Shown here one piece after another: positions 9,821-55,697 of a stretch of DNA of 64,000 nt. The notes beneath the pieces were generated by a model. The model was not told the origin of the DNA. It made no database searches and saw only the letters and a program-made list of their open reading frames with translations. Positions within the stretch are counted from its first letter, which is position 1, and each line of letters starts with the position of its first letter. The stretch is from Microthrixaceae bacterium (lineage in GTDB: Bacteria; Actinomycetota; Acidimicrobiia; Acidimicrobiales; Microtrichaceae), in assembly GCA_023957995.1 (NCBI GenBank), contig JAMLGK010000012.1, forward strand, positions 16,058 through 80,057, written 5' to 3'. A program made the translations under genes and the position numbers.

Positions 9821-12106
9821 ATGACCGCAGTGCCCGCAGATCCGGCTCTAGACCCTCGGACACCGCCGAACATGGCGGCGACCGAGCCGACGTCGTCCGA
9901 AGCACCGTTCCGGCAGGATGCGCCGAACGTGCTCGTGATCGTGCTCGACGACCTCGGGTTCGCACACCTGGGGTGCTACGGCTCCGATCTCGACACACCC
10001 AACCTCGACCGGCTCGCCGAGCGCGGGGTGAGGATGACCAACTTCCACACCACCGCCGTGTGCTCACCCACCCGGGCCTGCCTGCTGACGGGACGCAACC
10101 ACCACCGGGTCGGGATGGGGATGCTGCCCGACCTGCCGACCAACTTCGCGGGCTACACCGGAGAGTTCCCGAGGAACGCGTCGACGATGGCCCACATCCT
10201 CTCCGAGGACGGCTACGCCACGTACTGCGTGGGCAAGTGGCACCTGGTGCCGCGGGACCAACGCGACAGCGGGCCGCACCGCATGTGGCCCCTGGGTCAG
10301 GGTTTCGAGCAGTACTACGGATTCCTCAACGGCGAGACCAACCAGTGGACGCCGAACCTCGTGCGCGACAACACCCATGTGGAGCCGCCGGCGACCCCCG
10401 AAGAGGGGTACCACCTCGATGTGGATCTGGCCGATGCCGCCATCGACTACCACCGGGAGCTCCGGATCTCGCACCCGGACCGCCCCTGGATGATGTGGTA
10501 CGCCACCGGAGCACCCCATGCGCCACATCAGGCTCCGGCCGAGTGGATCGACGCATACTCGGGGCGCTTCGACGCGGGGTGGGGGGCATGGCGGGAGCAG
10601 GTCTTCGCCCGTCAGCTCGAGTTGGGAGTGTTGCCCGAGGGAACCGAGCTCTCTGCGATACCCGACTGGGTGCCCGACTGGGACTCCCTGGCCGATGACC
10701 ACAAGAAGCTCTATGCCCGCATGATGGAGGTGTTCGCCGGGTTCGTCTCACATGCCGATGCCCAGATCGGCCGCGTGCTCGATCACCTCGAGGCATGTGG
10801 CGAACTCGATGACACGGTGGTGGTTCTCGTGTCCGACAACGGAGCCTCTGCAGAGGGAGGCCCCCACGGCACCCACAACCAGCTGGGGCACTACATATCC
10901 GACGACGAGGACGATCTCGACGAGGAGCTTGCCCGCATCGAGGACCTGGGCGGCTGGAAGTCCTCGGGGCACTACCCGTGGGGCTGGGCGCTGGCCGGAA
11001 ACACACCGTTCAGGCGCTGGAAGCGCTACACCTTCGAGGGCGGGGTGAGGGACCCGTTCATCATCTGTGGACCCGGTGTCTCCGCTGCCGGCGAACTCCG
11101 CAACCAGTACGCGCACGTGGTGGATGTGCTCCCCACGGTGCTCGACCTCGTCGGCCTCCAGGTGCCCTCGGTGGTCGACGGTGTCGAGCAGATGAGCTTC
11201 GACGGCGTGAGTTTCACCGAGGCGCTCGAACGCCCGGATGCTCCGGCCCGGACCAGCCAGTACTACGAGTGTTGGGGAAGTCGTGCGATCTACCGCGACG
11301 GCTGGAAGGCGGTCACCGATCACGTCAACCAGCTCACCGCCAACGAGCGGAACCTGGTGAAGGGCAGTCACGACTTCGCAACCGACCGTTGGGCTCTCTT
11401 CGACACCGTCGCCGATCCGTCCGAGACCAGGGACCTGGCCCTCGAGCGCCCGGAACTGCTCGCCGAACTGGTCCGCGAGTGGTTCGAACAGGCAGAGGCG
11501 AACGGCGTGTTCCCCCTCGATGATGGAGCGGCAAACCGTTTCAGCCACATGCGCGTGCCCTGGACACCGTGGCGCACCGACTTCCTGTTCCGGGCCAATG
11601 ACAAGGTCCACGAGGTGAACGGTCCCAACCTGGCGGGCGGTTTCCGCATGGTCGCCACCTTCACCGAGGGACTCGACCGCAACAGCACCGGGGTGCTCGC
11701 TGAACAGGGTGACTGGAACGCGGGTTGGGCGATGTACCTGGCCGATGGCGAGGTCCGTTGGGTGATGGCCGGCTTCGGCGGGCCCACCGAGGTGGCCGCG
11801 ACCGTTCCCGAGGGCACGCACCTCTTGTCGGTCGAGGGGATCGCCTCTCCTGACGACCTGGAGCTCGTGCTCGGCGCCGACGGGGTGGAGATCGGCCGGG
11901 GAGCGCTCGGTCGACCGGTTCCGCTCGCCTGGGCGCCCGACGGAGCGTTCCTGACCGTCGGCTATGCGCGGCCCTTCCCGGTCACCGAGCGCATCGATGT
12001 CGGCGACGAGGCACCTGGATCCTTCGCAGGCCTGTCGATCCGCACCGGAACGCCGCCACCGCTCGATCTGGACGCCGAGTTCGAACGGGTGATGCGACAC
12101 CAGTGA
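9821..12106 (+). CDS. Arylsulfatase (Cys-type, formylglycine-dependent) with a ~250-aa C-terminal extension
   Basis: Sulfatase signature LVIVLDDLGF...AVCSPTRACLLTGRNHH (C-x-P-x-R) and GKWHLV. I chose the ATG at 9821 (MTAVPADP...), preceded by GGGGGAAA. The track start at 9671 overlaps the crotonase gene. Confidence 0.88.
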   Translation: MTAVPADPALDPRTPPNMAATEPTSSEAPFRQDAPNVLVIVLDDLGFAHLGCYGSDLDTPNLDRLAERGVRMTNFHTTAVCSPTRACLLTGRNHHRVGMGMLPDLPTNFAGYTGEFPRNASTMAHILSEDGYATYCVGKWHLVPRDQRDSGPHRMWPLGQGFEQYYGFLNGETNQWTPNLVRDNTHVEPPATPEEGYHLDVDLADAAIDYHRELRISHPDRPWMMWYATGAPHAPHQAPAEWIDAYSGRFDAGWGAWREQVFARQLELGVLPEGTELSAIPDWVPDWDSLADDHKKLYARMMEVFAGFVSHADAQIGRVLDHLEACGELDDTVVVLVSDNGASAEGGPHGTHNQLGHYISDDEDDLDEELARIEDLGGWKSSGHYPWGWALAGNTPFRRWKRYTFEGGVRDPFIICGPGVSAAGELRNQYAHVVDVLPTVLDLVGLQVPSVVDGVEQMSFDGVSFTEALERPDAPARTSQYYECWGSRAIYRDGWKAVTDHVNQLTANERNLVKGSHDFATDRWALFDTVADPSETRDLALERPELLAELVREWFEQAEANGVFPLDDGAANRFSHMRVPWTPWRTDFLFRANDKVHEVNGPNLAGGFRMVATFTEGLDRNSTGVLAEQGDWNAGWAMYLADGEVRWVMAGFGGPTEVAATVPEGTHLLSVEGIASPDDLELVLGADGVEIGRGALGRPVPLAWAPDGAFLTVGYARPFPVTERIDVGDEAPGSFAGLSIRTGTPPPLDLDAEFERVMRHQ

Positions 12107-24062: not shown

Positions 24063-24698
24063 GTGGGCATTCTCGGGGGCACCTTCGATCCCCCGCACAT
24101 CGGTCACCTGCTGGTCGCCCGGGCGGTGGGGGAGGCCCTCGCACTCGATTCCGTGGTGCTGATGGTGGCCGGGGATCCCTGGCAGAAGACCGACCTGGGC
24201 GAGATCACTCCGGCGGAGGACCGCCTCGCGATGGTCCGGGCCACGGTTCTGGACGGAACGGTTTCGGCTACCTCGACCGGGAACGCGGCCGGCACCACCA
24301 CCGCCCAGACCTCGCTCGAGGTCTCCGATCTCGAGCTGCGGCGAGGTGGGCGCACCTACACCGTCGACACGCTCGAGCAGCTCCGTGCCGAAGACCCCGA
24401 CCGTGAGCTGTTCCTGATCCTCGGAGCCGATGCAGCAGCGGGACTGGACACCTGGCACCGCCACGACGAGCTGTCGGGACTGTGCCAGCTGGCTGTGGTC
24501 GAACGGCCGGGCTCGCCGGTGGAGGTCGCCGGAGAGGTGGAGCATCTGCTGGTGGAGGCGCCGCTGGTCGACATCTCCTCCAGCGAGTTGCGGAAGATGG
24601 TGGCGCGGGGCGAGTCGGTCGAAGGTCTCGTCACCCCCGGTGCTATCTCGGTCATCGAGGAGCGCGGACTCTACGCTGGCGGCGATGACGGCTACTGA
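24063..24698 (+). CDS. nadD: Nicotinate-nucleotide adenylyltransferase
   Basis: GILGGTFDPPHIGH nucleotidyltransferase motif right at the N-terminus and ISSSELR near the C-terminus. I chose the GTG at 24063; the track start at 23655 adds 136 non-homologous residues. Confidence 0.88.
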   Translation: MGILGGTFDPPHIGHLLVARAVGEALALDSVVLMVAGDPWQKTDLGEITPAEDRLAMVRATVLDGTVSATSTGNAAGTTTAQTSLEVSDLELRRGGRTYTVDTLEQLRAEDPDRELFLILGADAAAGLDTWHRHDELSGLCQLAVVERPGSPVEVAGEVEHLLVEAPLVDISSSELRKMVARGESVEGLVTPGAISVIEERGLYAGGDDGY

Positions 24699-25983
24699 GC
24701 CACCGCGCGCAGACCAGGGCCCCGAGGTGGTCATAGGTCCGCCGGCAGGCACCAACGAGACCTCGCTGCCTCCGCGCGCCGAGGCTGTCGTGCGTCGCCG
24801 TCGGGTCGAGTCCCGCCAGCGACGGCTGACCGGCTGGCAGGTCGCGATCACGGCGGTGTCGGTGTTGTTGCTCCTGGGGCTGTCCTGGGTCGGCTACCAA
24901 TCGGCACTGAAGGTCGGCGGCGGCACCGATGACCGGGTGACCGACCCCACCCAACCGGGATACCTGGCCGAACCGCGTCCCACCCCGGCGGATGCCTACG
25001 TCGTCACCGATGCCGAGGGTCAGTTCGCGTCGGCGCTGATGGTGGTGCCCGACTCGTCGGGCCAGGGCGGGACCCTGGTGCCGCTGCCCCCGTCGTTCAT
25101 CGTGCCCGAGTACGAGGATTCTCCACCGGAGTTCCTCAGCACGTTGTACAACGAAGGTGGCCCCGACGGGTTCCGTGACCGTCTGGGCGTGGCTCTCGGA
25201 GTGACGATCGATTCCGTCCGGGAGGTACCCGAGGCGGCCATCGAGGAACTGGCCGGGGGTGTCCCGTTGGAGGTCGAGAACGTCGATGACCTCGCGGTGC
25301 GAAATCCCGACGGCACCACCGAACTCCGGTATCCAGCAGGTCCGCTCACCCTCGAGCCCTCCGCCATCGTCGAGTTCCTGGCCTTCGAGGGAGCCGACGA
25401 CCCCGCGCCCAACCAGGCGATCCGCGCCACGGCGGTGTGGGAGCAGCTCTTCGCCAATGCCGTCGATTCGACCCATGAGGACCTGACCGAGGGAGCCGCT
25501 TCGGAGGGAGCCGCCAGTCCGCCATTCGGAGCTGCCGTCGACGACCTGACCGCCGGCGAGGTTCGATACGACAGCGTGCCGATGGCCAAGGTGCCGGTTC
25601 CCGACAGCTACTTCGTCGCCTGGATGCCGGACCCGGCCTCTCTGAACAAGTTCGTGGCCCGGGTGGTACCCCTGCCGCGTTCTCCGGCACCGGGGATCCG
25701 GCCCTCCGCTGCCGTCCTCAACGGCACCACCAGCAGCGATGCGCTCACCGCCATGGTTCCGGTGGTCGTCGAGGCCGGTGGCGCTGTGTCCCTGGTCGGC
25801 AACGCCGACAGTTTCGATGTGGCGACCACGACCGTGCAGTGGCTCTCGCCCGACGGTCGGGCGGTGGCGGAGTCGATCGCCGGCCAACTCGGCCTGACCG
25901 CCACCGAGGCCTCCGACGAGGTGGCGGGTGAACTGGGGGGCACGAGCGTGCTCGTGGTCCTCGGCTCGGATCGCACGACGTGA
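24685..25983 (+). CDS. Membrane protein with a C-terminal LytR_C-like domain
   Basis: The ATG at 24685 (MTATEPP...) overlaps the nadD end. One TM helix (WQVAITAVSVLLLLGLSWVGY). The C-terminal AAVLNGTTSSDALTAM...LVGNADSF resembles LytR_C. The position between nadD and rsfS is conserved in actinobacteria. Confidence 0.6.
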   Translation: MTATEPPRADQGPEVVIGPPAGTNETSLPPRAEAVVRRRRVESRQRRLTGWQVAITAVSVLLLLGLSWVGYQSALKVGGGTDDRVTDPTQPGYLAEPRPTPADAYVVTDAEGQFASALMVVPDSSGQGGTLVPLPPSFIVPEYEDSPPEFLSTLYNEGGPDGFRDRLGVALGVTIDSVREVPEAAIEELAGGVPLEVENVDDLAVRNPDGTTELRYPAGPLTLEPSAIVEFLAFEGADDPAPNQAIRATAVWEQLFANAVDSTHEDLTEGAASEGAASPPFGAAVDDLTAGEVRYDSVPMAKVPVPDSYFVAWMPDPASLNKFVARVVPLPRSPAPGIRPSAAVLNGTTSSDALTAMVPVVVEAGGAVSLVGNADSFDVATTTVQWLSPDGRAVAESIAGQLGLTATEASDEVAGELGGTSVLVVLGSDRTT

Positions 25984-28243: not shown

Positions 28244-28316
28244 TGGAGCCGATGGGAATCGAACCCACGACCTCTTCCATGCCATGGAAGCGCTCTCCCA
28301 ACTGAGCTACGGCCCC
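28244..28316 (-). tRNA. tRNA-Ala (anticodon GGC)
   Basis: The reverse complement folds as a cloverleaf: GGGGCCG TA GCTC AGTTGGGA GAGC G CTTCC ATGGCAT GGAAG AGGTC GTGGG TTCGATT CCCAT CGGCTCC A. It has the G3:U70 alanine identity pair, T33 and A37. CCA is not encoded. Confidence 0.93.
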
Positions 28317-45773: not shown

Positions 45774-45860
45774 CTCGGTCTGTCAACATGGTCACCCTGA
45801 GTAGTGGAAATGTTCTCCGAGCCACGCAGAGTAGCCGGTGTGACATTTGTTCCAAGGGCG

Positions 45861-46397
45861 ATGGTGAGGGTGAGGGGACCAGTGAAAGACGACACGGCAG
45901 GTAGGGCAGGCGGCGAGCAGCAGGACTCGTTCGGACGGGCTGTGGGCGAACGCCTGCGGCGGATCCGGCGTCAGAAACGCCTGTCGCTCCAGGAGGTCGA
46001 AGCCGACTCACTCGAGGAGTTCAAGGCCTCTGTGCTCGGAGCCTACGAGCGGGGCGAACGGGCGATCTCGGTGCCGCGTCTCGCCCGGCTGGCCGCCTTC
46101 TACAAGGTGCCGGTGGATCAGCTGTTGCCCTCGAGTGACGGGGAGGCGGAGGAACCCGAGCGCGAGCTCGACGGGATCGGGGCCAAGATCGACCTGACCC
46201 GCCTGGAGGACCTGTCCGGTGCCGAGGCCGACATGCTCACGCGCTACCTGCGCATGATCCAGGTGCAGCGCCAGGACTTCAACGGACGGATGCTGACCAT
46301 CCGGCGCGATGACATGCGTGCGATCGCGTGCATCCTCGGAGTGGGCTTCGATGCAGCGGAGTCCAGGCTGGTCGAACTCGGTCTCAGGATGGGCTGA
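45861..46397 (+). CDS. XRE-family helix-turn-helix transcriptional regulator with an uncharacterised C-terminal domain
   Basis: HTH GERLRRIRRQKRLSLQEVE...VLGAYERGERAISVPRLARLAAFYKV. The start is uncertain: ATG 45861, GTG 45882 (purine-rich GGTGAGGGGA upstream) or the track GTG at 45804. Confidence 0.65.
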   Translation: MVRVRGPVKDDTAGRAGGEQQDSFGRAVGERLRRIRRQKRLSLQEVEADSLEEFKASVLGAYERGERAISVPRLARLAAFYKVPVDQLLPSSDGEAEEPERELDGIGAKIDLTRLEDLSGAEADMLTRYLRMIQVQRQDFNGRMLTIRRDDMRAIACILGVGFDAAESRLVELGLRMG

Positions 46398-46411: not shown

Positions 46412-47302
46412 TCAGGCGGGCAACCGAAGGGTCTGGCCCGGTAGCAACAGATCAGGGTTGCCGGGTTCCACGAGCCGTGATTCGTTGATGGCCACGAGCT
46501 CCAACCAGTAGTCGCGAACCTGCTCCTCGCTGGGCTCGGCGCCAACTGCGAGACGAACCCTCCTGCGGGCCACCTCCCAGAAGTTGTCTCCGGGGCGAAC
46601 CGTGTACTCGATTCGCTGGATCGCCTCATCCTCGGCCTCGGACCCCGCCCGAGGGTCCATGGCTCCCGATCGTGCAGCGGTGTTGGGTGGGATCGGTGTG
46701 GTGGGCCCTCCTGTCGCCCCAGCGGCGCCGGTCGTCGTCATGGCGCTGGTCGTGGCCGTGGTCGTGGAGGGGCTGGTCGCGGTCGTGGTCGTGGGGCCGC
46801 TGCTGGTGCTGGTCGTGGTGACCGGCTCGGTGATCGGCGCGGTGCTGGCGGGCGGCGGGGAGTGGGAATCGTCGTCGTCATCGATCATTCGCATCACCGG
46901 GGGTGCGGCCGGGCGAGGCTGAGGCGGGTCCGAGAGGCCGGGGGAGTGGCTCGAAGAGGCGCCGGCGACCGGGGTGCTGCCCAGCACTGCCGCCACGGCC
47001 AGCGCGGCAACAGGAGCGGGGCTGAGGTGTGAGGTGACTCGGCCGAGGGCCTCATTGCGTGAGATCAGGGCGGCTACGTGGATCAGGGTCGCCGCGACGA
47101 GGTAGCCCAGTGCGACCGTTGCGACCAGGCGTCCACACGATGCGACAGCGTCAATGGCCTCGCGGGAGCTCCACCAGCTCTGCCACAGGCCGGGGTCGAC
47201 AGGCGGTGGGTCGAGGCGGTCATCTCGGACGCTCCACATGGCCGCGAGCGCAACCACGCAACTCGCCAGGAACGTGGACAGAGGAAGCACGCGGCGGATC
47301 AC
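46412..47302 (-). CDS. Membrane protein with a Thr-rich linker and a C-terminal LysM-like peptidoglycan-binding domain
   Basis: About three N-terminal hydrophobic helices, a Pro-rich tract, a DDDDD tract and a T/S-rich linker. The C-terminus YTVRPGDNFWEVARR...NPDLLLPGQTLRLP is LysM-like. I chose the GTG at 47302 (GTGA overlap with the upstream stop, in frame). Confidence 0.7.
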   Translation of the reverse strand: MIRRVLPLSTFLASCVVALAAMWSVRDDRLDPPPVDPGLWQSWWSSREAIDAVASCGRLVATVALGYLVAATLIHVAALISRNEALGRVTSHLSPAPVAALAVAAVLGSTPVAGASSSHSPGLSDPPQPRPAAPPVMRMIDDDDDSHSPPPASTAPITEPVTTTSTSSGPTTTTATSPSTTTATTSAMTTTGAAGATGGPTTPIPPNTAARSGAMDPRAGSEAEDEAIQRIEYTVRPGDNFWEVARRRVRLAVGAEPSEEQVRDYWLELVAINESRLVEPGNPDLLLPGQTLRLPA

Positions 47303-48594
47303 CGGTCCTGCTCCAACACGACCTCCGGGTAGACACAACCGCCGGGGGCTGCCTCGGCCAGTCCCGCTGCCCCTTCGAAAGAGCCCACCAGTTCCGGAGC
47401 TACCTCTGTCGTCTCGGTCGGCCAGTCGGTGAACTCATACAGATCGCCGGTGTCGACCTCCAGCAGGAGCACGGAGGCCGTTCCGTCGCAGTTCCAGTCG
47501 CCGACCGCCACATGGTCGCCGTGGTCTCCCACCTCGAATCTGGCGCCACCGACCGCAACGAGGTTGTCCGAGACCACGATCTCGTCACAGCTCACCGCTC
47601 GGCCGAGGGGAGCGACGCTGCAGCTCGGAGGTGTCGGCCGGGTCAGAGCGATGAGCAGCTGCGCCAGCACCGCACCGAGAACCAACGCCAGCAGCGCGGC
47701 AACGAACAACGAACGACGCGTCCGTGTCCGGTCGCGCCTCGGGTTCGCCGGAACCGTCCCGGGCACGCGCGCGTCTCTCAACAGCTCTGCGGTAGCGGCA
47801 CCGTCGAGCAGCCCCCGTTTGGCTGACATCGACGAAAGGGCTCGTCGCGCCGACCGATCCCAGTTGCGCCGCTCGGAACGCGATCCGAACGCTCCGGGAG
47901 TCTCCAGGGTCGACCGGACGATCGCGCTGAGCGCCTCGCGGTCGTCAGCAACGGCGTCGGCGTCGCCCTCGACCAGTAGCTCCACCGCCTCGCCGAATGA
48001 ACACAGCCGCACGGATCCCTCGTCGTCCACCAGCACATGTGCAGGCTCGAGAGCTCCGTGACTCCACCCCGCGAGGTGGATGCCATCTACCGCCGAACAG
48101 AGCGAGAGCAGAGCGCGTCCGCGTCGGTGACCTTCCAGCAGACCCGCTTCGGCAAGGGTGAGTGTGCCGTGGCGCACGGTGGTGAGTTCGGTGTGGTCCG
48201 CCCCCTCGCCCAGATCCGCAACCCGGACGACCCCTTGTTGCCGCAGACGGGCGAGCACCTCGGCTTCTCGACGCAACGCAGCGCGCCCAGAGTCCGAAGC
48301 GGACTTCACCACGACGGCCTGATCGCCGAGCACCGCGCTGTGGACCTCCGGTCGCCCTCCCGGTGGAGCCGGTCCCAACTGACCCTTCGAGCGCTGCGCC
48401 GGTGTGATCGTGAGGTCTCCGGAGCGGGCCGGAGTGACCTCGGCAGGTTCGTCGGTGACGCAGGAGTTGTCCGAGCTCGGGGTACCTGAATGTGCGGCGT
48501 TCGGAATCGTCGTGTCATCGCCAGCGGCACTCGGATCCGGGAGGTCCGCGCTCGAGGTGCCTGCGGTCGGAACGTGCGGCGATCGAGCGCTCAC
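47299..48594 (-). CDS. Bitopic membrane pseudokinase (degenerate Ser/Thr kinase fold) with a Cys-containing FG-GAP/VCBS-like ectodomain
   Basis: AVVVKSA (beta3 Lys) and REAEVLARL (alphaC Glu) are retained. The catalytic loop reads HGALEPAHVLV instead of HRDLKPxN, and DFG is SFG. TM helix SLFVAALLALVLGAVLAQLLIAL, then ~110 aa with 4 Cys and VGDWNCDG. The GTG start overlaps the upstream stop (GTGA). Confidence 0.65.
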   Translation of the reverse strand: MSARSPHVPTAGTSSADLPDPSAAGDDTTIPNAAHSGTPSSDNSCVTDEPAEVTPARSGDLTITPAQRSKGQLGPAPPGGRPEVHSAVLGDQAVVVKSASDSGRAALRREAEVLARLRQQGVVRVADLGEGADHTELTTVRHGTLTLAEAGLLEGHRRGRALLSLCSAVDGIHLAGWSHGALEPAHVLVDDEGSVRLCSFGEAVELLVEGDADAVADDREALSAIVRSTLETPGAFGSRSERRNWDRSARRALSSMSAKRGLLDGAATAELLRDARVPGTVPANPRRDRTRTRRSLFVAALLALVLGAVLAQLLIALTRPTPPSCSVAPLGRAVSCDEIVVSDNLVAVGGARFEVGDHGDHVAVGDWNCDGTASVLLLEVDTGDLYEFTDWPTETTEVAPELVGSFEGAAGLAEAAPGGCVYPEVVLEQDR

Positions 48595-49073
48595 AGCATC
48601 CGCCCCCGGACCACGACTCTGATGAGGCTGGCCTCCTCGAGCCCCGGCACCGCGGGACCGAGCACGTGCGGAACCTCCACCACGGCGTCGATCTGCACAG
48701 TTCCGGCAGACGGGTCCGTGGTCACGTCAGCCGACACGACCCGGAACGCCGGTGCAGCGAATCCCTCCGGAGGATCACCATCGAACAATCCGAGGTGGGC
48801 CCGCACGACGCGATCAGCCGCGTCCGGATCGATCCAGACGCGGCCGGTCCGCTGGAACTCTTCGGAGTCGACCATCGCGGCAGCGTCGTCTGCTGCAGCG
48901 GAGAGGCTGCGGTAGGCGGACCGGCGCGCTGTGTGGACCAACGACAGATCGACCGCAATGGCCCCGAGAACGAGCACGATGAGTACCAGGGCCGGGGCGA
49001 GCATGAGGGCGGTAGCGCGTTCCTCTCCCACCCGTCGTTGCACACGCGTCGATCTTCTCGGAGACTCACTCAT
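48591..49073 (-). CDS. TadE/TadG-like pseudopilin (third copy)
   Basis: N-terminal GEERATALMLAPALVLIVLVLGAIAVDL hydrophobic helix, as in Flp pilus-assembly TadE/G-like proteins. I chose the ATG at 49073, which has an 8-nt overlap with the upstream gene. Confidence 0.6.
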   Translation of the reverse strand: MSESPRRSTRVQRRVGEERATALMLAPALVLIVLVLGAIAVDLSLVHTARRSAYRSLSAAADDAAAMVDSEEFQRTGRVWIDPDAADRVVRAHLGLFDGDPPEGFAAPAFRVVSADVTTDPSAGTVQIDAVVEVPHVLGPAVPGLEEASLIRVVVRGRML

Positions 49074-49554
49074 GACAGGCAGTGCGTCGTGGGTCGTGGT
49101 CGACTCCCGGTTCCATCTCGCGATGGGCATCGATGAGCTCCACCGCAGAGACCGTGACCGTGTGCTCGCCCCAGCGCGCCCCGGTGAGCGGAACGTGGAT
49201 CGCCGGTACCCGCGAGGTCAGTCGCACCGCTGCCGCTTCGCAGGGACCGAACCGCTCGGGCTGAGGTGCTTCGAGAAGCAGTCGCTCGAGCATCGCCGGC
49301 CGGTCCTCCAGAACGTCATCCACCGCTCGTCTTCCGGCGGTCGCTGCGGATGCAGGGTCCTCCGACTCGGTGTACACACGCAGGTACTCGCGTGCTGCGG
49401 ACTCCAGTGCGGTACGGGTGTCGACCACCGCCCAGGCGTTCACCACGAGGATCAGTCCGGCGAGCACGATCAGCGTCCCCACCGCGAGGGCTTCTGCGCC
49501 GGCCACCATCGCCCGTTCCCCATGCCCACGCGTATGCCGGCGCGAGCACGTCAT
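49066..49554 (-). CDS. TadE-like pseudopilin (second copy)
   Basis: GERAMVAGAEALAVGTLIVLAGLILVVNAW N-terminal helix, and an ATGA overlap with the upstream gene. Confidence 0.6.
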   Translation of the reverse strand: MTCSRRHTRGHGERAMVAGAEALAVGTLIVLAGLILVVNAWAVVDTRTALESAAREYLRVYTESEDPASAATAGRRAVDDVLEDRPAMLERLLLEAPQPERFGPCEAAAVRLTSRVPAIHVPLTGARWGEHTVTVSAVELIDAHREMEPGVDHDPRRTACHE

Positions 49555-49958
49555 GGCTTCTCGCGGTGGATGCGGATGGTGCGCTCCAACCCACCCACCA
49601 CCGGTCCGTGTCGAGCGATCATGCGGGGCAGCAGAGCAATGCCCGGGGCGGAGACATGGAGCTGAACCATCGGGTCGCCAGTGGTGTGCGTGAACCGCAT
49701 GCTCACCTCAGCGCAGCGGTCTCCGAGCTGGTCACAGGCCCGTTCCAGTGCCAGGGACCGCACAACCGATTGGTCGGCCGAAGGGTCAGATGTGGCCACC
49801 TCGCGTGCAGCGTCGTACGCGAGGGACTCGATGCTGCTGCGGTCCCAGAGGCCTATTGCCACATTGGAGGCGAGCCCGACCGTTCCCAGGAGCACGCCAA
49901 GACCCAGGACAGTTGGAAGCAGCCCGGTGCCGCGCTCGGAGCGCCAGCGGTTTTCCAT
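49551..49958 (-). CDS. TadE-like pseudopilin (first copy)
   Basis: SERGTGLLPTVLGLGVLLGTVGLASNVAIG N-terminal helix. It starts 3 nt after the pilin stop. Confidence 0.6.
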   Translation of the reverse strand: MENRWRSERGTGLLPTVLGLGVLLGTVGLASNVAIGLWDRSSIESLAYDAAREVATSDPSADQSVVRSLALERACDQLGDRCAEVSMRFTHTTGDPMVQLHVSAPGIALLPRMIARHGPVVGGLERTIRIHREKP

Positions 49959-49961
49959 CGC

Positions 49962-50171
49962 TCAGGGGCTGCCGTCGATGCTCTGGATCTGCTCGCTCGT
50001 CCGTGCTGTGGCGTCATCCATGATGACGCTGAAGCCAGCCCACAGCGCGACGCCCAGCAAGGCGACGATCAGCACAGCTATCGCGGTGGAGATCACGCCT
50101 TCGCCGGCCTCACCCCGGCCGCTCGGGCCCGGCTTGGACCTGGTGCGACCCCTTTCTCGGTGTTCGAACAT
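49962..50171 (-). CDS. flp: Flp/DUF4244-like type IVb pilin candidate (69 aa)
   Basis: The ATG at 50171 has GGAGGAAG 6 nt upstream. The sequence MFEHRERGRTRSKPGPSGRGEAGEG-VISTAIAVLIVALLGVALWAGFSVI... has a charged leader ending in Gly followed by a hydrophobic helix. The track start at 50261 is over-extended. Confidence 0.5.
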   Translation of the reverse strand: MFEHRERGRTRSKPGPSGRGEAGEGVISTAIAVLIVALLGVALWAGFSVIMDDATARTSEQIQSIDGSP

Positions 50172-50202
50172 GTCTCTTCCTCCATCTCTGTCGACTGGTT
50201 CT

Positions 50203-50240
50203 CTGTGACGGTCCTGCGGTGCTGTGACCGTTCTGCGGTA
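50203..50240. repeat. 19-bp tandem repeat x2 (ctgtgacggtcctgcggtg / ctgtgaccgttctgcggta) in the tadC-flp spacer
   Basis: Read directly; 16 of 19 positions identical. It lies 32-69 nt upstream of the pilin ATG on the coding strand. Confidence 0.75.
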
Positions 50241-50266
50241 GGGATTCGATGACTGCTCCACCGGGC

Positions 50267-51178
50267 TCAGCCTGTGATCCGTGTCATTGCGTTGACGAAG
50301 GGAACTCCGATGAGGATCAGACCCGGAACCAGCGTTGCGACGGTCACCGGAATCCAGACCAGTTGGGCGCGACGTTCGATCGATTCGATCGTGCGGCGAT
50401 GTGCCGCTGCCCGAATTCCCCTCGCCTCGGTCGCGAGCAGTGCCCCGAGGTCGGCCGCGTCGCGATGCATGCTCAGCACGCCGACGAGACGATCGACGCC
50501 CTCGCAGCGGACACGATCGGCCCAGGCCCGAAGCGCCTCCACCTCGGATGTGCCCTGCCGAACTGCCATCTGGACCGCTCGCAGGTCCTCTGCGACCGCG
50601 CCGCTGCTGCGACGGCAGATGCGATCCAACGCGCTCCCGAGCGACAGGCCGGACGCGAGGAGCACAGCGATCTGTTCGCTGACCACCGGGAGTTCGGCTT
50701 CCAGACGTTCGGTGCGCCGAGCCGCCGCGCTCTCGAGTCGGTGCTCCGCGCTCAGCGCCACGAGCGTGGGTGTTCCCAGGGTCAGAAGGATGACGACTGC
50801 CGGACCCGGTCGGATCCAGAGTGCCAGAGCGCAGGCAACGGCCTCTGTGAGGAGCACGGCCACGAACTGCTCCAGACGGAACTCCGAAGGTGACCTGGGG
50901 GACCCAGCACGCTTGATGCGAGCCGCCAGATCGGTTCGGATGCCGCTCAGGCGACCGAGTCGCTCGCCGAAGCTCTCCGCTATCGGCAGGAGAACGGCCC
51001 TCAGTGATCCAACGATGCTGGGAGTGCCGGGCTCGGCGGACCGGTCCTCGGTCCGGTTGGGGGCATAGGGGGCCAGCCGGGTCGGCATGCCACTGCGGCA
51101 GAAGAATCGGTTGCAGCCCAGGATCAACGACAACCCGACGAAGCCGCAGCAGGCCGAGAGCAGGATCAGGCCATTCAT
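50267..51178 (-). CDS. tadC: Type II secretion system F-family protein (TadC-like)
   Basis: 303 aa. N-terminal TM, cytoplasmic helical T2SS-F domain, and C-terminal TM pair (LVWIPVTVATLVPGLILIGVPFV). The ATG at 51178 forms an ATGA overlap with tadB; the track start at 51838 is over-extended. Confidence 0.75.
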   Translation of the reverse strand: MNGLILLSACCGFVGLSLILGCNRFFCRSGMPTRLAPYAPNRTEDRSAEPGTPSIVGSLRAVLLPIAESFGERLGRLSGIRTDLAARIKRAGSPRSPSEFRLEQFVAVLLTEAVACALALWIRPGPAVVILLTLGTPTLVALSAEHRLESAAARRTERLEAELPVVSEQIAVLLASGLSLGSALDRICRRSSGAVAEDLRAVQMAVRQGTSEVEALRAWADRVRCEGVDRLVGVLSMHRDAADLGALLATEARGIRAAAHRRTIESIERRAQLVWIPVTVATLVPGLILIGVPFVNAMTRITG

Positions 51179-52047
51179 CGCTCGAAGACCCGTTGTTCGA
51201 CCGGAACTTCCATGATCCTGCCCGCCCACCACCAGCAAAGGGCGATGAGCCCGATGGCGGCTACCGAGGCGACCTGTCCGCCCGTGCTGCGGTAGGCATC
51301 CGCTCCTTCGCCGAGACTCATGCCTGCAAGGGCCATCCCCGCGGGGACCACGATCACGAACCAACGCGCCACCCGTGCGCCGGCCTGTCGGGCAGCCGCT
51401 TCGCGACGGTCGCGCTGGGCTGTTCGACGGTCGCTCGCCAGGGAGTCGAGGCGCTCGTCGAGATCTCCCCCCACCTCGTGGACGACCAACAGCGTCTCGC
51501 AGACGGCATCCGCGGTCGGGTCCGCCAGGCTCTCCTTGAGTGTCGACACGGTCCGTCTGAAGTCGGTAGTCAGCGCCCACTCGCGGCGTGCGGCATCGAA
51601 GCTCCCTCGCAGCGACTCTGGGGCAGTTGACCCGCATTCCAGAAGCGCCTGCGGGATCGACTGTCCCAATGCTCCGACCCTGACACGGATCTCCTCGATC
51701 AGACGGGGCCACGCCTCTGCCACCGCCTCGCGTCGGCGGATGCCGCGGCGCCGCCAGAGCGCCGCCGGGGTGCATGCGACCACGAGTCCGATGGCGACCA
51801 TCGGGAGACCGGGTCCCATCGACAAACCAGCGATACACGCTGCAAGACTTCCGACGCCCACCGAGACCAGTACGAAATGGCGAGGGCTCACCGCTGTCAG
51901 GCCCGCGGAAGCCAGATAGCGCTGGACGAGGGCTGTCGATCGACCGATGACTCCACGGCTCGTCCCGGTGGTCCTACCTGTCACCGAGTCGGGCAACAAC
52001 AAGTACACCCCGACAGCCGCTGCGCCTGCGAACACGATCGTCAGCAC
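51175..52047 (-). CDS. tadB: Type II secretion system F-family protein (TadB-like)
   Basis: 290 aa with the same TM/helical/TM layout. The GTG start overlaps the tadA stop by 7 nt. Confidence 0.75.
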   Translation of the reverse strand: MLTIVFAGAAAVGVYLLLPDSVTGRTTGTSRGVIGRSTALVQRYLASAGLTAVSPRHFVLVSVGVGSLAACIAGLSMGPGLPMVAIGLVVACTPAALWRRRGIRRREAVAEAWPRLIEEIRVRVGALGQSIPQALLECGSTAPESLRGSFDAARREWALTTDFRRTVSTLKESLADPTADAVCETLLVVHEVGGDLDERLDSLASDRRTAQRDRREAAARQAGARVARWFVIVVPAGMALAGMSLGEGADAYRSTGGQVASVAAIGLIALCWWWAGRIMEVPVEQRVFER

Positions 52048-53363
52048 CGCCCTGCTCCGTCCCCGGTCGCGTTTGCGTCGGCGGGTGAGCCCTTGAGGTG
52101 CTCGACGAGATCGACGCCGCGCCCTGCCATGCGGTCCCGCAGCCGTGATGGCATCACTCCTGACCAGACCAGTGCGCCGTGCTCATCGCGGTGGTACACC
52201 TCTGTCGTGGTCATGTTCACCGCGTCGGTTCCGGCGGCGAGATCCTCAACCGCGAGAACGGAGGTGACCGCCGGCCCCGAGTCCTCACGTTGCGTGTGCA
52301 CGACGAGGTCGATGGAATCGGCAACGAGCGAGTTGAGCGCGTCCAGCGGAAGTCCTCTCGCCGTCTCCGAGAGCTGTGCGATGAATCGCAGCCGGGTGAG
52401 AGCCTGGCGAGCCGACCCTGCGTGAATCGTCGTGTAGCCCGTAACGCCACTCGAGAGTGTCAGCAGCAACGGCAGCGCCTCGCGGTCGCGGACCTCGCCA
52501 ACTATTGCGACGTCTGGTGCCATTCGGAGAAACCCGGCGACCAGGCGTCTGAGGTCGATCTCTGGGCGGTCGCTGCGCGCAGACCGGGTCTGGAGCCCGG
52601 CAAGGTTCGCAACAGGAATGTCTGCTTCGAACACCTCCTCGGCCACGACCACGCGAAGCGAGGGGTCGAGCTCTGCGGCGCAGCACGACAACAGCGTCGT
52701 CTTGCCGGACCCCGGCGCACCTGCGAACACGATCGACATACGACAACGCACGGCCAGGGACAGGAACTCCGCGGCTGATGGGGACAGCGAACCTCTTTCG
52801 ACCAGTTCGGACAACTCGGTGATTGCCACGCCGGTGAACTTTCGGATGTTCACCACGAGGTGTCCGCCACGGGTGAGGTCGCCGTGAACGATGTGCACGC
52901 GGGCACCATCGTCGAGCTGGGCGTCCTGAAGCCCCTCCGCCGGATCCAACTTGCGGTGCGACGTCGTGGAGTCGTCGAGCAGCTTGGTGATGGTGCGCAG
53001 GACGTGCTCGTCGTCGTGGAAGACCTCGGGGTGCAGTCCGCTCGGTCCCCGGTGGCGCCTTGCGAAGACCGACGTGGGGGAGTTGATCATCACCTCCCAG
53101 ACATCGGGGTCCTCGAGAAGTTCGGTGAGCGGTCCGTATCTGGCGAGGTTCCTGAACGCCCGCCGGGTCACCCCATCAGGGTCCGGCAGGCCATGACTAC
53201 GGGTCCCCCTCCGGTGTTCGTCCTCCCAGCGACAGACCTCGTGGTCGATGAGTTGCATCAACACCGATTCGCCTTCGGCGTTGCTCGTGTCGAGCTGCCG
53301 GCTGTTCGCCGCTCTGCGAACGGATTCCTCTATCTCCCTCAGTGGCCCGACGGCGTCGTTCAT
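52041..53363 (-). CDS. tadA: CpaF/TadA family secretion ATPase
   Basis: Walker A FAGAPGSGKTTLLS, Asp box/Walker B VVVAEEVFE, His box GVTGYTTIHAGSA. Size and motifs are typical of the T2SS-E/CpaF family. Confidence 0.92.
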   Translation of the reverse strand: MNDAVGPLREIEESVRRAANSRQLDTSNAEGESVLMQLIDHEVCRWEDEHRRGTRSHGLPDPDGVTRRAFRNLARYGPLTELLEDPDVWEVMINSPTSVFARRHRGPSGLHPEVFHDDEHVLRTITKLLDDSTTSHRKLDPAEGLQDAQLDDGARVHIVHGDLTRGGHLVVNIRKFTGVAITELSELVERGSLSPSAAEFLSLAVRCRMSIVFAGAPGSGKTTLLSCCAAELDPSLRVVVAEEVFEADIPVANLAGLQTRSARSDRPEIDLRRLVAGFLRMAPDVAIVGEVRDREALPLLLTLSSGVTGYTTIHAGSARQALTRLRFIAQLSETARGLPLDALNSLVADSIDLVVHTQREDSGPAVTSVLAVEDLAAGTDAVNMTTTEVYHRDEHGALVWSGVMPSRLRDRMAGRGVDLVEHLKGSPADANATGDGAGRC

Positions 53364-54562
53364 CCGACTGCCTCGATCAGGGTCGGTCCGATCGGGGCAC
53401 GTGCGACCGTTCCCTGGTCCGCCAGAACCTGTCTGACTGCGGTCGCGACCGGGTCCACCAGTGAGCGCGGAAATGGGACCGCGTCCCTGTGAACCCCCTC
53501 GAGGCGGACCCGGGGCAGGAACACCACTTGCGCCGGGTTGTGTTCGGCGCCGAGCAACGCCCTGAGTTGGGATCTGAGCGTCGCACGGCTGGGATCGGAC
53601 CGCCTGGTGCGATTGCAGACGAGCAGCACGCGTTCGGCGGGGACGCCCGCATCGAGGGCCTCGGCTGTGAACCGTGCACCATCGTGAACTCCCTTGATCC
53701 CTGCATCGATCGCCACCACCCAGACCGAAGCCCTGTCGATCAGAGACGTACTCAGGGGTCCCGAGACCAGGTCACCGTCGTGGTCAACCACCAGGACCTC
53801 GGCATAGCGACGAATGACATCGAGTGCTTCGGCGGTCGCCGCCTGCGGAAGCGAGTGTGATTCCCGAACAGACGTGGCGCCCAGAATCAGCCTGTATCCG
53901 CGGCGGGTTGCGAAGTCGAGGTCGTTCAGTTCGGCTGGATCGATGGTGGAGCGACGAGACCTGGCCACCAGGTCTCCGAGACCGGGAATCACATCCCCGA
54001 CGTCGTGGTACATGGCGAGATGCCCGCGGACTGCTCCGTCGAGCAGGACCACACTGCCGGCATCCTGTGCCATCCCCTGTGCAAGAGCCATGGCGACCAC
54101 CGAGGTGCCGGCTCCGCCCGGTCCGCAGACCGAGATGGTCGTTGCAGCGGTCTCGTCCTGGTCGAGTGAGGCACGGATGAGTCGCCGGGAGCCGACCGCC
54201 CTCTGATCACAGATACGGCCGAGCAACGACGTGAGCTCGGCCGCGTCGAAATCCGCACCGAGAACTCCGGTCACACCGAGTGCCTCCCAGTCGGTGACCA
54301 CCGAAGCTGCCTCGACCCCCACTGGAACCGAACCGTGTCGGGCGATGGAGCCGACCAGGTCGCGGTCGACCTGCACCGATGCTCCATCGAGGAGCACGGC
54401 ATCGATGTCCCGTCCAGAGGCAAGCGCTGCTGTGAGTTCGGTCGCCGAGAGGCACGTCAACAGGTCCAACCCCAGAGCACCGGACGTCGACCAGCGAGCG
54501 ATAGCCGTCGGCCAGTTCGAGCGCGGGTGGGCGAGGGCCGCCAGCAGCTGCGGATTGCTCAC
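53360..54562 (-). CDS. tadZ: CpaE/TadZ/Ssd-like ParA/MinD-family ATPase with an N-terminal receiver-like domain
   Basis: Deviant Walker A SVCGPGGAGTSVVAMALA. The N-terminal ~130 aa is a CheY-like pseudo-receiver. It overlaps its neighbours by GTGA and ATGA. Confidence 0.8.
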   Translation of the reverse strand: MSNPQLLAALAHPRSNWPTAIARWSTSGALGLDLLTCLSATELTAALASGRDIDAVLLDGASVQVDRDLVGSIARHGSVPVGVEAASVVTDWEALGVTGVLGADFDAAELTSLLGRICDQRAVGSRRLIRASLDQDETAATTISVCGPGGAGTSVVAMALAQGMAQDAGSVVLLDGAVRGHLAMYHDVGDVIPGLGDLVARSRRSTIDPAELNDLDFATRRGYRLILGATSVRESHSLPQAATAEALDVIRRYAEVLVVDHDGDLVSGPLSTSLIDRASVWVVAIDAGIKGVHDGARFTAEALDAGVPAERVLLVCNRTRRSDPSRATLRSQLRALLGAEHNPAQVVFLPRVRLEGVHRDAVPFPRSLVDPVATAVRQVLADQGTVARAPIGPTLIEAVG

Positions 54563-55197
54563 GGTTGATCCTGAGCGTCCATGGTCCCGGGAGCCCCGAC
54601 CGCGACCGAGAGCTCCTCTGTCACGGCGGCATCCACGATCCCTGTGGCACTGTCCATGTCGGGCACCGCGAGCGTGACTCGAAGCCCTGCGGCGGAGCCG
54701 ATGCTGCCGGTTGAGTCCTCGGTGTCGACCGTGGTGATTCGGGCCGAAGGCGATACGACGCGCGTCCCGGAGTCCGACGTGGCGAGGATGGCGACCCAGT
54801 CTCCGGCGGCCAGTTCGGAGACCGGGGTCCGTTCAGGGTCGAGGCTCACGGTCACCTCCGTCTCTCCGCTGTTCTCGAAGCGGCGACCATCAACGAGGTC
54901 GCCGTCGGTCAGGAGCGTCGAGGGTTGAAGGGCGTGAGAGGCCAGTCGTCCGACCGCCTCGTCAGCCTGTTCCTCGCTCATGGCGCCGACCGACGAAGGC
55001 AGGTCGATCGCCACGGTTCCGAGCGACTCAGATGTGAGCCGTTCTCCGGTCTCCACGTGGCTGGTGATGACCAGGTAGCGGTCACGCGGCGGATCGCCGG
55101 CCGCCCGGTAGGCAAAGAGCACGCCGAACGCCGCAGTTGTCACCAGCGCTGCACCCAACAGGGCGCGCCATTTAATGACGGGCGGTTCCCCAGCCAC
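54559..55197 (-). CDS. cpaB: CpaB/RcpC-like (SAF domain) Flp pilus assembly protein
   Basis: N-terminal TM (WRALLGAALVTTAAFGVLFAY) followed by a SAF-like beta domain (YLVITSHVETGERLTSESL). The GTG start has a purine-rich GGGAGAG 4-5 nt upstream. Confidence 0.65.
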   Translation of the reverse strand: MAGEPPVIKWRALLGAALVTTAAFGVLFAYRAAGDPPRDRYLVITSHVETGERLTSESLGTVAIDLPSSVGAMSEEQADEAVGRLASHALQPSTLLTDGDLVDGRRFENSGETEVTVSLDPERTPVSELAAGDWVAILATSDSGTRVVSPSARITTVDTEDSTGSIGSAAGLRVTLAVPDMDSATGIVDAAVTEELSVAVGAPGTMDAQDQP

Positions 55198-55223
55198 CGT
55201 CTCTCCCTTCCTCTCCGCCGGAG

Positions 55224-55252
55224 ACCTTGCCCGCCGGATCGAAAGATGTCAA
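55224..55252 (-). promoter_or_regulatory. Candidate promoter of the tad operon
   Basis: Minus strand: TTGACA (rc of 55247-55252), a 17-nt spacer, then CAAGGT (rc of 55224-55229). This predicts a ~20-nt leader to the GTG at 55197. The -10 is weak. Confidence 0.3.
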
Positions 55253-55448
55253 GGGTTCGGTGATCCATTGACATCGCGTGAAGGTGCGGGAAAGGGGAGT
55301 AGGTCTCCGCGATCGCGGTTCTGGCCGTTGCAGCCTCAGGAGACCGCGAGCGCAACTCGGGCGGCGTGACACCGGCAACTGCGGCCTGCGGAAATCGTCT
55401 CGTCACGCATCCGCAAGGTGCGTCGGTGGGCCAGCTAGTCTCCGTTCA

Positions 55449-55697
55449 GTGAGCGCTGACGAGATCGACTGGTTGAACACAGCGAAGGCAGCTGAGCGTC
55501 TGGGGGTCACCCCGCGCACCCTCTACCGGTTCATCGACGATGGCCAGCTGCCCGCGTACCGCTTCGGACGGGTGATCCGTCTCAAGTCACATGAGGTCGA
55601 CGACTTCATCGAACGATGCCGCATCGCGCCGGGCACACTCGACCTGACCACTCCGCAGCCCACCCACGACCTGCGCGAGTCCGCCGAGAACCCCTAG
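55449..55697 (+). CDS. Excisionase/MerR-type HTH_17 DNA-binding protein
   Basis: LNTAKAAERLGVTPRTLYRFIDDGQLPAYRFGRVIRLKSHEVDDFI is the excisionase-family HTH. I chose the GTG at 55449. It is divergent from the tad operon. Confidence 0.75.
   Translation: MSADEIDWLNTAKAAERLGVTPRTLYRFIDDGQLPAYRFGRVIRLKSHEVDDFIERCRIAPGTLDLTTPQPTHDLRESAENP

Follow-up and report, generated by a model that had tools for sequence, protein, structure and literature searches.

Why a Tad pilus operon should end in genes for a kinase-fold protein with degenerate catalytic motifs and for a LysM membrane protein is the question raised by the minus-strand operon at positions 46412-55197 of the Microthrixaceae DNA analyzed here (64,000 nucleotides [nt], referred to below as the window; G+C content, approximately 67%). 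The closest database match at the protein level comes from a metagenome-assembled genome of Microthrixaceae, in the class Acidimicrobiia. The operon contains 11 open reading frames (ORFs), of which the first nine are a secretin-less Tad (type IVc) set and the last two encode a bitopic pseudokinase and a polytopic protein with a Thr-rich stalk and a LysM domain. It is a class-specific extension of the Tad machine, in which annotation and linkage are real and the function is what we infer. By analogy with other envelope machines, the likeliest role of the two distal proteins is that of accessory components that would scaffold a monoderm Tad machine in the envelope and anchor it to peptidoglycan, a proposal for which we consider the chances to be evenly balanced.

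When the ORF list and the junctions were re-read in the sequence, the 11 chained ORFs and every junction proposed in the sequence-only reading were confirmed (Table 1). Six junctions are 4-nt overlaps of the form NTGA, two are longer overlaps (tadA/tadB and tadE2/tadG-like), and the remaining ones are two gaps of a few bases each. The flp gene is the place where that reading was corrected: its gap to tadE1 stands, and the start codon of the longer ORF (GTG 50261) gives way to ATG 50171. The latter is probably the start, because a GGAGGA Shine-Dalgarno sequence lies 5′ of this ATG and the 69-residue product resembles the genes of 68 to 74 amino acids in the relatives; the choice leaves a 95-nt gap behind tadC. 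A wider set of relatives was collected by a scan seeded with the pseudokinase, in which the four closest sequences were the query and one genome was taken per GTDB species. Of 117 relatives, 80 loci were kept; nearly all are titled Acidimicrobiia or unclassified Actinomycetota, a few are titled "bacterium," and two are titled Bifidobacterium breve. The NTGA overlap at the tadE1/tadE2 junction is present in 26 of 31 relatives. At the pseudokinase/LysM junction it is present at 32 of 53 loci, with a 1-nt overlap at another 5, and these 4-nt overlaps persist at 27 to 40% protein identity. At the tadG/pseudokinase junction it is found in 11 of 40 relatives, and the others mostly have gaps of 4 to 85 nt. 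Because the same NTGA overlap recurs in relatives, the overlaps are judged to exceed chance. A consensus scan gave no promoter-like site in the operon region, and the two terminator-like hairpins detected, against 2.9 expected from shuffles, both lie within the pseudokinase coding sequence. The same scan detected neither a terminator nor a promoter signal that would separate the two distal genes from the tadG-like gene, which, together with the 4-nt overlaps, agrees with the earlier suggestion that these two genes are made with the pilus parts.

The assignment of the first nine genes to the known actinobacterial Tad set was likewise upheld, although by two routes. In the window, only TadA, TadB, and TadC exceed the Pfam thresholds, whereas the six other Tad genes were identified through Pfam scans of orthologues gathered from the 80 related loci. 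The best NCBIfam match of TadA is TIGR03819 (TadA family), with 169.5 bits against an equivalog cutoff of 373. The CpaB-like protein has weak SAF and RcpC matches in the window, and its orthologues match RcpC in 10 of 10 cases (best E = 3.9e-10) and SAF in 9 of 10. Similarly, the TadZ-like protein of the window shows weak P-loop matches only; CbiA, MinD, or ParA is matched by 6 of 10 orthologues (best E = 6e-4), and the gene sits between cpaB and tadA at all syntenic loci. In the Flp-like prepilin, a Gly-containing basic leader precedes the single hydrophobic helix, whose segment is GVISTAIAVLIVALLGVAL; of 11 orthologues, 7 match DUF6133 and 1 matches Flp_Fap. The canonical G/XXXXEY motif is not present in this pilin, and the conserved motif is (E/D)(R/A)GEGVIS(T/A)AIAVLI. 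None of the three minor pilins of the window itself reaches a Pfam threshold. Among orthologues of minor pilin 1, 7 of 13 match Pfam TadE (best E = 7e-4). Minor pilin 2, in which C110 is invariant, has weak direct Pfam support (1 of 12 orthologues) and aligns with the minor pilin 1 family in an hhalign profile-profile comparison (E = 1.8e-6, probability of 90%). The 12 orthologues of the TadG-like protein give weak matches to Tad_C (three), Tad (TadE/G-like; two, best E = 6.7e-4), and DUF7262 (four). In the relatives, (E/D)RG directly precedes the hydrophobic helix of the pilin and of each of the three minor pilins; in the window, the motif reads EAG in the pilin and ERG, ERA, and ERA in minor pilins 1 and 2 and the TadG-like protein, respectively. 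This shared motif is probably a prepilin peptidase site common to the four pilins. No prepilin peptidase (TadV/CpaA) was found among the 11 operon genes or among the window ORFs tested; two ORFs elsewhere in the window with multiple transmembrane (TM) segments proved to be MurJ and a protein without a match. The peptidase gene may lie elsewhere in the genome, as in B. breve (PMC6916266). There is no secretin gene among the 11 operon genes, as expected for a monoderm. The locus is placed in the Tad/type IVc class because it combines the ATPase, two platform proteins, and TadE-type minor pilins.

Table 1. Coordinates of the operon genes and of other features, with the junction to the preceding gene of the operon
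Feature	Position	Strand	Basis or remark	Junction with preceding gene
CpaB/RcpC-like SAF-domain protein	54559..55197	-	N-terminal TM helix, residues 12-30	
TadZ/CpaE-like P-loop protein, ParA/MinD class	53360..54562	-	Orthologues and position	GTGA, 54559-54562
TadA/CpaF secretion ATPase	52041..53363	-	Pfam T2SSE, E = 3.4e-26	ATGA, 53360-53363
TadB platform protein	51175..52047	-	Pfam T2SSF, E = 6.1e-08, above gathering score	7-nt overlap
TadC platform protein	50267..51178	-	Pfam T2SSF, E = 8.7e-09, above gathering score	ATGA, 51175-51178
Flp-like prepilin, 69 amino acids from ATG 50171 (probable start)	49962..50171	-	GGAGGA; longer ORF to 50261	
TadE-like minor pilin 1 (tadE1)	49551..49958	-	N-terminal ERG motif, then hydrophobic helix	3-nt gap
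TadE-like minor pilin 2 (tadE2), conserved Cys pair	49066..49554	-	Paralogue of minor pilin 1	ATGA, 49551-49554
TadG-like minor pilin	48591..49073	-	N terminus aligns with minor pilin 1 profile	8-nt overlap
Bitopic pseudokinase	47299..48594	-	Fold model, profile, motif census	GTGA, 48591-48594
Polytopic LysM membrane protein	46412..47302	-	Pfam LysM, AlphaFold2, hydropathy, linker composition	GTGA, 47299-47302
Divergent intergenic region, presumed promoters of tad operon and HTH_17 gene	55198..55448		Position only	
HTH_17 (MerR/excisionase-type) regulator gene	55449..55697	+	Pfam HTH_17, E = 2.7e-14; divergent from tad operon	
BldD-like regulator	45804-46397	+	HTH_3 and BldD C-terminal domain; convergent with LysM gene	
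LytR_C cell-envelope domain protein	24430-25983	+		
tRNA	28244-28316	-	Rfam	
MurJ lipid II flippase gene	119-1780	-		
Pseudokinase of tad-less clade, loci L023, L025, L026, L032, L034, L035, L037	~10000-11400			
Pseudokinase of tad-less clade, loci L042, L044, L050, L052, L058, L064, L073	~10000-11400			

The first distal protein begins with a disordered Ser/Thr/Pro-rich tail (residues 1 to 62), followed by a kinase-like domain (residues ~63 to 280), a TM helix (residues 297 to 315), and a Cys-containing, disulfide-type β-ectodomain of approximately 105 residues (residues ~325 to 431). Because the Arg-rich stretch RRDRTRTRR lies immediately N-terminal of the TM helix, the kinase-like domain is predicted to be cytoplasmic and the ectodomain to face outward. 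The Pfam Pkinase profile matches the window protein with an E value of 2e-5, under the gathering score, and Kdo is the only other Pfam match. The AlphaFold2 model has a mean predicted local distance difference test (pLDDT) score of 81, with blocks over residues 70 to 280 mostly above 90, and retrieves more than 1,900 protein-kinase chains of the PDB by Foldseek at an E value of ≤1e-3. A profile built from 39 family members matches thousands of kinases, among them Mycobacterium tuberculosis PknB (2e-21). From the predicted model and the family profile, we are confident that this protein carries a kinase fold.

A census of the catalytic motifs covered 72 family members. Ten of them retain the catalytic Asp, which is otherwise replaced by Arg, Ser, Ala, or Asn; the metal-binding Asn is kept in 3, with His in 67; and the Asp of the DFG motif is kept in 5, with Gly or Ser in its place behind a near-invariant Cys. 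The β3 Lys (64 of 72) and the αC Glu (70 of 72) are largely retained. In the window protein, the catalytic motifs read H-G-A...H...C-S-F. A Gly-rich loop is absent, and the activation segment is short. The motifs of an active Hanks-type Ser/Thr kinase are not found, and the protein is, by its sequence, a pseudokinase derived from Hanks kinases. One relative (L047:5034-6377) has a GDWDCD ectodomain together with an intact HGD motif, Asn, and DFG motif, and its Pkinase score is 135 bits. This relative has the look of an active member of the family or of its ancestral type. Its gene adjoins an ORF of 1,740 amino acids.

In the ectodomain, a GDW(D/N)CDG motif and the cysteine pair C369/C420 are almost invariant, and a second motif, DVDGDGC, occurs in many relatives. 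Matches to FG-GAP profiles are weak: of 20 ectodomains, 7 match FG-GAP_3 (best E = 0.008) and 4 match FG-GAP, whereas the ectodomain of the window matches neither; a protein with 14 FG-GAP repeats (P0156) matches the core motif of the window ectodomain. A comparison of the ectodomain profile with PDB sequences gave nothing meaningful (best E = 0.1). When 1.84 billion representatives were searched by HMMER with the ectodomain, 1,148 clusters at 50% identity were returned (E ≤ 1e-3). The top 150 matches include 100 proteins with a length of 340 amino acids or more, and 97 of these also carry the kinase-like domain of the family. As judged from these searches, the two domains form one coherent, abundant family that is large in environmental data. 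The few named members are labeled "hypothetical protein" or "serine/threonine protein kinase" in databases, and 7 of 8 sampled full-length members with this ectodomain match no Pfam family at an E value of ≤0.01.

The second distal protein has three N-terminal hydrophobic helices, as judged from hydropathy and the model, and a disordered stalk (residues 113 to 229) composed of 20% Thr, 16% Pro, 15% Ala, and 14% Ser. The stalk leads to a C-terminal LysM-like domain of approximately 65 residues (residues ~230 to 296), which AlphaFold2 predicts with pLDDT scores of 88 to 95 as a β-α-α-β arrangement (strand 232 to 234, helices 241 to 253 and 259 to 272, and strand 291 to 293). The basic N terminus and the three helices suggest that the N terminus is inside and that the stalk and LysM domain are outside the membrane. 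The Pfam LysM score of the window protein is 18.6 bits against a gathering score of 20.9, and 13 of 18 homologues match the family (best E = 1.2e-5). The predicted structure and the profile matches of the homologues support a LysM fold. The domain is an extended variant with the conserved signature YW..L...N...L.EPGNPDLL.PGQ.L.LP. A Foldseek search with the whole model gave no significant match and one weak match (9g8s_S; probability of 0.97, E = 0.38), probably because approximately 40% of the model is disordered linker. The two distal proteins therefore remain as the sequence-only reading had described them, one as a bitopic kinase-fold protein with dead catalytic motifs and a small Cys-containing ectodomain (AlphaFold2, Foldseek, and the 72-member census), and the other as a polytopic protein with a Thr-rich stalk and a LysM domain (hydropathy, composition, AlphaFold2, and Pfam matches in homologues).

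The same LysM variant occurs in two other architectures. In L126:3995-5086, P0016 (L142 and L143), and P0023 (L144), it follows an N-terminal HTH_17 domain and one TM segment, which suggests a membrane-tethered regulator with its LysM domain outside. The P0016 and P0023 genes sit just upstream of gidB/rsmG, away from tad, and the fusions were dropped as evidence for a Tad-linked sensor. In contigs from termite guts (L132, L135, L137, and L138), secreted proteins without tad context carry one or two copies of the variant with the consensus YTVR.W...D.LW.IAG..W.YNDP..W..LYEAN...MPEPGNP.LI.PGM.L.IPS, so this LysM subtype is wider than Acidimicrobiia. The termite-gut matches that are confined to the C-terminal domain are unrelated secreted proteins and were left out of the co-occurrence counts.

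These features could be read in regulatory terms. The ectodomain of the pseudokinase, which possibly binds Ca2+ via its DxDxDG-like loop, and the LysM domain would then sense the wall, surface contact, or muropeptides and exert allosteric control over the activity or expression of the Tad system. TadZ or TadA could relay the signal, as could the divergent HTH_17 regulator; alternatively, an active kinase could phosphorylate the Ser/Thr-rich N-terminal tail, with recruitment of an FHA protein as described for MviN. The descent of the family from active, receptor-type Hanks kinases speaks for such a module, as does L047, in which the same ectodomain is paired with a high-scoring Pkinase domain. 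The retained β3 Lys and αC Glu could permit nucleotide binding, and the disordered N-terminal tail is rich in Ser, Thr, and Pro like the phospho-acceptor tail of MviN, whose pseudokinase is a phospho-dependent scaffold in Actinobacteria (PMC12599244). The existence of the HTH_17-LysM fusions and an HTH_17 gene divergent upstream of the operon point in the same direction. On the other side, the operon has no FHA, phosphatase, or active kinase gene, the HTH_17-LysM fusion genes adjoin gidB rather than tad, and start/stop coupling with structural genes at the distal end of an operon is more typical of stoichiometric components. We regard a sensory or regulatory module as unlikely, albeit the stronger of the two alternatives considered.

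The linkage of the distal genes to the Tad system was assessed at the 50 pseudokinase loci with at least 7 kb of upstream and 2.5 kb of downstream sequence, in which locus content was counted by iterated hidden Markov model searches over the ORFs. The genes of loci without tad, and of those loci only, were called by a caller based on G+C content at third codon positions (GC3). Relatives at 27 to 40% identity show the same order from the SAF protein to the LysM protein, between phoH and BldD, and tad genes are present at 30 of the 50 loci. Of these, 23 have tadA, the minor pilins, and LysM; 4 have the minor pilins and LysM, tadA being encoded on the opposite strand or lying past the flank; and 3, from Poriferisodalaceae, have tad genes and the pseudokinase without LysM, a convergent radical-SAM gene following. 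The pseudokinase occurs with LysM only at 2 loci and alone at 17, and 1 locus has other content. An independent scan of metagenome contigs was seeded with the LysM protein, and for 25 of its full-length matches the upstream region could be seen. The gene directly upstream is the pseudokinase in approximately 16 cases and the tadG-like gene in 8 (approximately 24 of 25), and the sole exception has the HTH_17-TM-LysM architecture. In both scans, the distal genes mostly occur at tad, so the association first read from a single operon holds among its orthologues. Both genes are accessory rather than core components, as one or the other is missing in some lineages with an intact tad operon.

Rearranged loci show which of the genes travel together. 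In Actinomarinicola tropica (L003:4845-8569, CP045851), a 3.7-kb insertion lies between the tadG-like gene and the pseudokinase, leaving the pseudokinase-LysM pair intact; it carries, on the opposite strand, genes for a HisKA_3 sensor, a GerE-type response regulator, and a DEAD-box helicase. The inserted helicase recalls the name of TIGR03819, which we take to be the "helicase/secretion neighbourhood" model of actinobacterial TadA. In L004, the LysM gene stands directly behind the tadG-like gene, and a homologue of the pseudokinase is encoded on the opposite strand, immediately upstream of the operon. In a clade of nine loci with a split operon (L083:5109-8932, L054, L056, L062, L065, L066, L067, L070, and L071), cpaB, tadZ, and tadA, as far as the flank includes them, are on one strand, and phoH, ybeY, corC, tadE2, tadG, the pseudokinase gene, and the LysM gene are codirectional on the other; in L083, the start of tadE2 overlaps the stop of corC. 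Because the genes remain contiguous through the operon split, the tadE2-tadG-pseudokinase-LysM block is taken to behave as a unit. Two of the loci, L011 and L074, are titled "MAG: Bifidobacterium breve" (MAG, metagenome-assembled genome), although their gene order is of the Acidimicrobiia type. L011 is a full locus, and L074 comprises the pseudokinase, LysM, BldD, and rsmE genes on a contig truncated upstream. The titles are taken as mislabels, and the two loci are not counted as evidence for the module in bifidobacteria.

The 17 loci without tad form one clade in a neighbor-joining tree, which is sister to the tad-linked Poriferisodalaceae clade (positions are given for some of its members in Table 1). 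In this clade, the pseudokinase gene is convergent to dnaJ-hrcA-lepA, on the same side of the ancestral interval, and no tad, LysM, rsmE, or BldD gene lies within 10 kb. The Asp of the HRD motif is kept in five of its members (L026, L031, L032, L036, and L044). According to several isolate names, the clade looks like largely sponge-associated Acidimicrobiales MAGs; sponge-associated Acidimicrobiia of another order have been reported to lack cpaE (PMC12008989). These loci are most simply explained if tad and LysM were secondarily lost or moved elsewhere and the pseudokinase was kept.

The clade can also be taken as a sign that the pseudokinase, and perhaps the LysM protein as well, is a general envelope protein of Acidimicrobiia whose gene happens to reside in the dnaJ-phoH interval and is read through with the operon, taking no part in the pilus. 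An entire clade that keeps the pseudokinase beside dnaJ-hrcA-lepA with tad not nearby, the reported absence of some Tad genes in sponge-associated Acidimicrobiia (PMC12008989), the one chromosomal neighborhood common to all loci, and the position of the L004 pseudokinase upstream of the operon on the opposite strand fit this explanation, but it is improbable given that a full-length LysM gene is never found away from tad minor-pilin genes (the HTH fusion architecture excepted), that the 4-nt overlaps persist despite the divergence of the proteins, that the four-gene block survives operon split and inversion, and that the tad-less pseudokinases are one derived clade, sister to a tad-linked one, which fits secondary loss.

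We return to the proposal that the distal proteins are a scaffold and an anchor of the Tad machine. The pseudokinase and the LysM protein, probably with the TadE2 and TadG-like minor pilins, would form an accessory envelope subcomplex. The pseudokinase would be a noncatalytic hub linking cytoplasmic parts (TadZ, TadA, or the TadB/TadC platform) with the extracytoplasmic minor-pilin complex, and the LysM protein, by means of its long flexible stalk, would hold the machine at the peptidoglycan or set its position there, standing in for outer components that monoderms lack (secretin, RcpB, and TadD). In its fullest form, the proposal is of a structural subcomplex of the distal proteins with TadE2 and the TadG-like protein for trans-envelope alignment and wall anchoring, with the pseudokinase as a third, independently evolved pseudokinase hub and the subcomplex as the first dedicated anchor to peptidoglycan to be described for a Tad pilus; we put forward this version only tentatively. 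The precedents are bitopic pseudokinases that act as interaction hubs in envelope machines of Gram-positive bacteria, namely, EssB/YukC of the type VIIb secretion system (T7SSb) and TraF of the pIP501 type IV secretion system (T4SS) (PMC9600267, PMC13037476, PMC11217815).

Several observations weigh against an envelope scaffold and anchor. The Pkinase and LysM scores of the window proteins themselves fall under the Pfam gathering thresholds, and in relatives, the tadG-like gene and the pseudokinase gene are often separated by 10 to 85 nt instead of overlapping. The pseudokinase can persist without an adjacent Tad system, as it does at the 17 loci of the one clade. There are also 8 LysM-seeded loci without the pseudokinase and 3 Poriferisodalaceae loci without LysM. 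Finally, all occurrences are found in one class and share one chromosomal interval, from dnaJ-rsmE-BldD to phoH, so synteny may overstate the functional linkage.

The genes around the operon are those of this interval, with hrcA-dnaJ-rsmE and the BldD-like regulator on one flank and the HTH_17 regulator, followed by phoH-ybeY-corC, on the other. The HTH_17 gene is 81% identical to its positional counterpart in L001, a divergent HTH_17 gene is also present in L004, L083, and a JGI contig, and it is a candidate local regulator of the operon. No match to the sigma-70 consensus was found in the intergenic region that separates it from the operon. Across the whole window, Rfam identified a single tRNA and no riboswitch upstream of the operon. 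The stop codons of the BldD-like and LysM genes are 14 nt apart, with no terminator hairpin detected between them; BldD in Streptomyces is an effector of cyclic di-GMP (c-di-GMP). Genes for a LytR_C cell-envelope domain protein and the lipid II flippase MurJ are located elsewhere in the window (Table 1).

Monoderm Tad pili have been presented as the simplest type IV filament machines, and two questions about them were left open: how monoderm type IV pili cross or are anchored to the peptidoglycan and what holds the type IVc pilus (Tfpc) assembly complex together (PMC6916266). The class-wide pair of Tad-linked membrane proteins, one with a cytoplasmic scaffold fold and the other with a predicted peptidoglycan-binding domain, provides testable candidates for both. 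If the proposal is true, the emerging pattern of dead-kinase hubs in Gram-positive envelope machines would extend to a third machine type. The operon resembles the monoderm Tad loci (B. breve tad2003, Micrococcus luteus tad, and M. tuberculosis Rv3654c-Rv3660c) in that TadZ-like, TadA, TadB, TadC, small Flp-like, and TadE-like proteins are encoded in one operon, with neither a secretin nor a prepilin peptidase in the locus (PMC6916266). In contrast to those loci, which are described as lacking RcpC (PMC6916266), it has a CpaB/RcpC gene; a third minor pilin, which is TadG-like, and the two distal proteins are further additions. The distal proteins are not in the monoderm gene set of that study, in agreement with their initial placement outside known Tad systems, and full-text literature searches combining these topics found no description of a Tad-linked pseudokinase or LysM module.

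The topology of the pseudokinase, with an N-terminal cytoplasmic pseudokinase domain, one TM segment, and an extracellular domain, is the same as that of EssB/YukC and TraF, and each of these proteins is encoded within the operon of a Gram-positive envelope machine (PMC9600267, PMC13037476). Membership of the pseudokinase in the EssB/YukC/TraF family was ruled out: Pfam lists only Pkinase and Kdo, and YukC, EssB, and TraF are absent from the top 60 PDB sequence matches and the top 50 Foldseek matches, all of which are Hanks or eukaryotic kinases. In contrast to those hubs, its closest solved relatives are PknB-type Hanks kinases, and its ectodomain is a small FG-GAP-like β-domain. The resemblance is best read as an independent recruitment of the kinase fold.

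FimV and TsaP are LysM proteins that support type IVa pilus machines in diderms, where they act with a secretin in the periplasm. The LysM protein described here is similar to them in that its LysM domain, which is predicted to bind peptidoglycan, belongs to a membrane-associated protein and the proposed role is that of an accessory to a type IV filament machine. It differs from them in that the operon is secretin-less and that the LysM domain is a variant of approximately 65 amino acids with an EPGNPDLL motif, borne on a Thr/Pro-rich stalk with a three-helix anchor. The pseudokinase, in turn, shares with the MviN(MurJ)-pseudokinase of M. tuberculosis and the ActPs families the character of an actinobacterial membrane-linked pseudokinase with a short activation segment and a link to the wall (PMC12599244). 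Its ectodomain and gene context differ from those of MviN and ActPs. Compared with ActPs3 as described in the same publication (PMC12599244), which has lost the β3 Lys and αC Glu, the present family keeps both residues.

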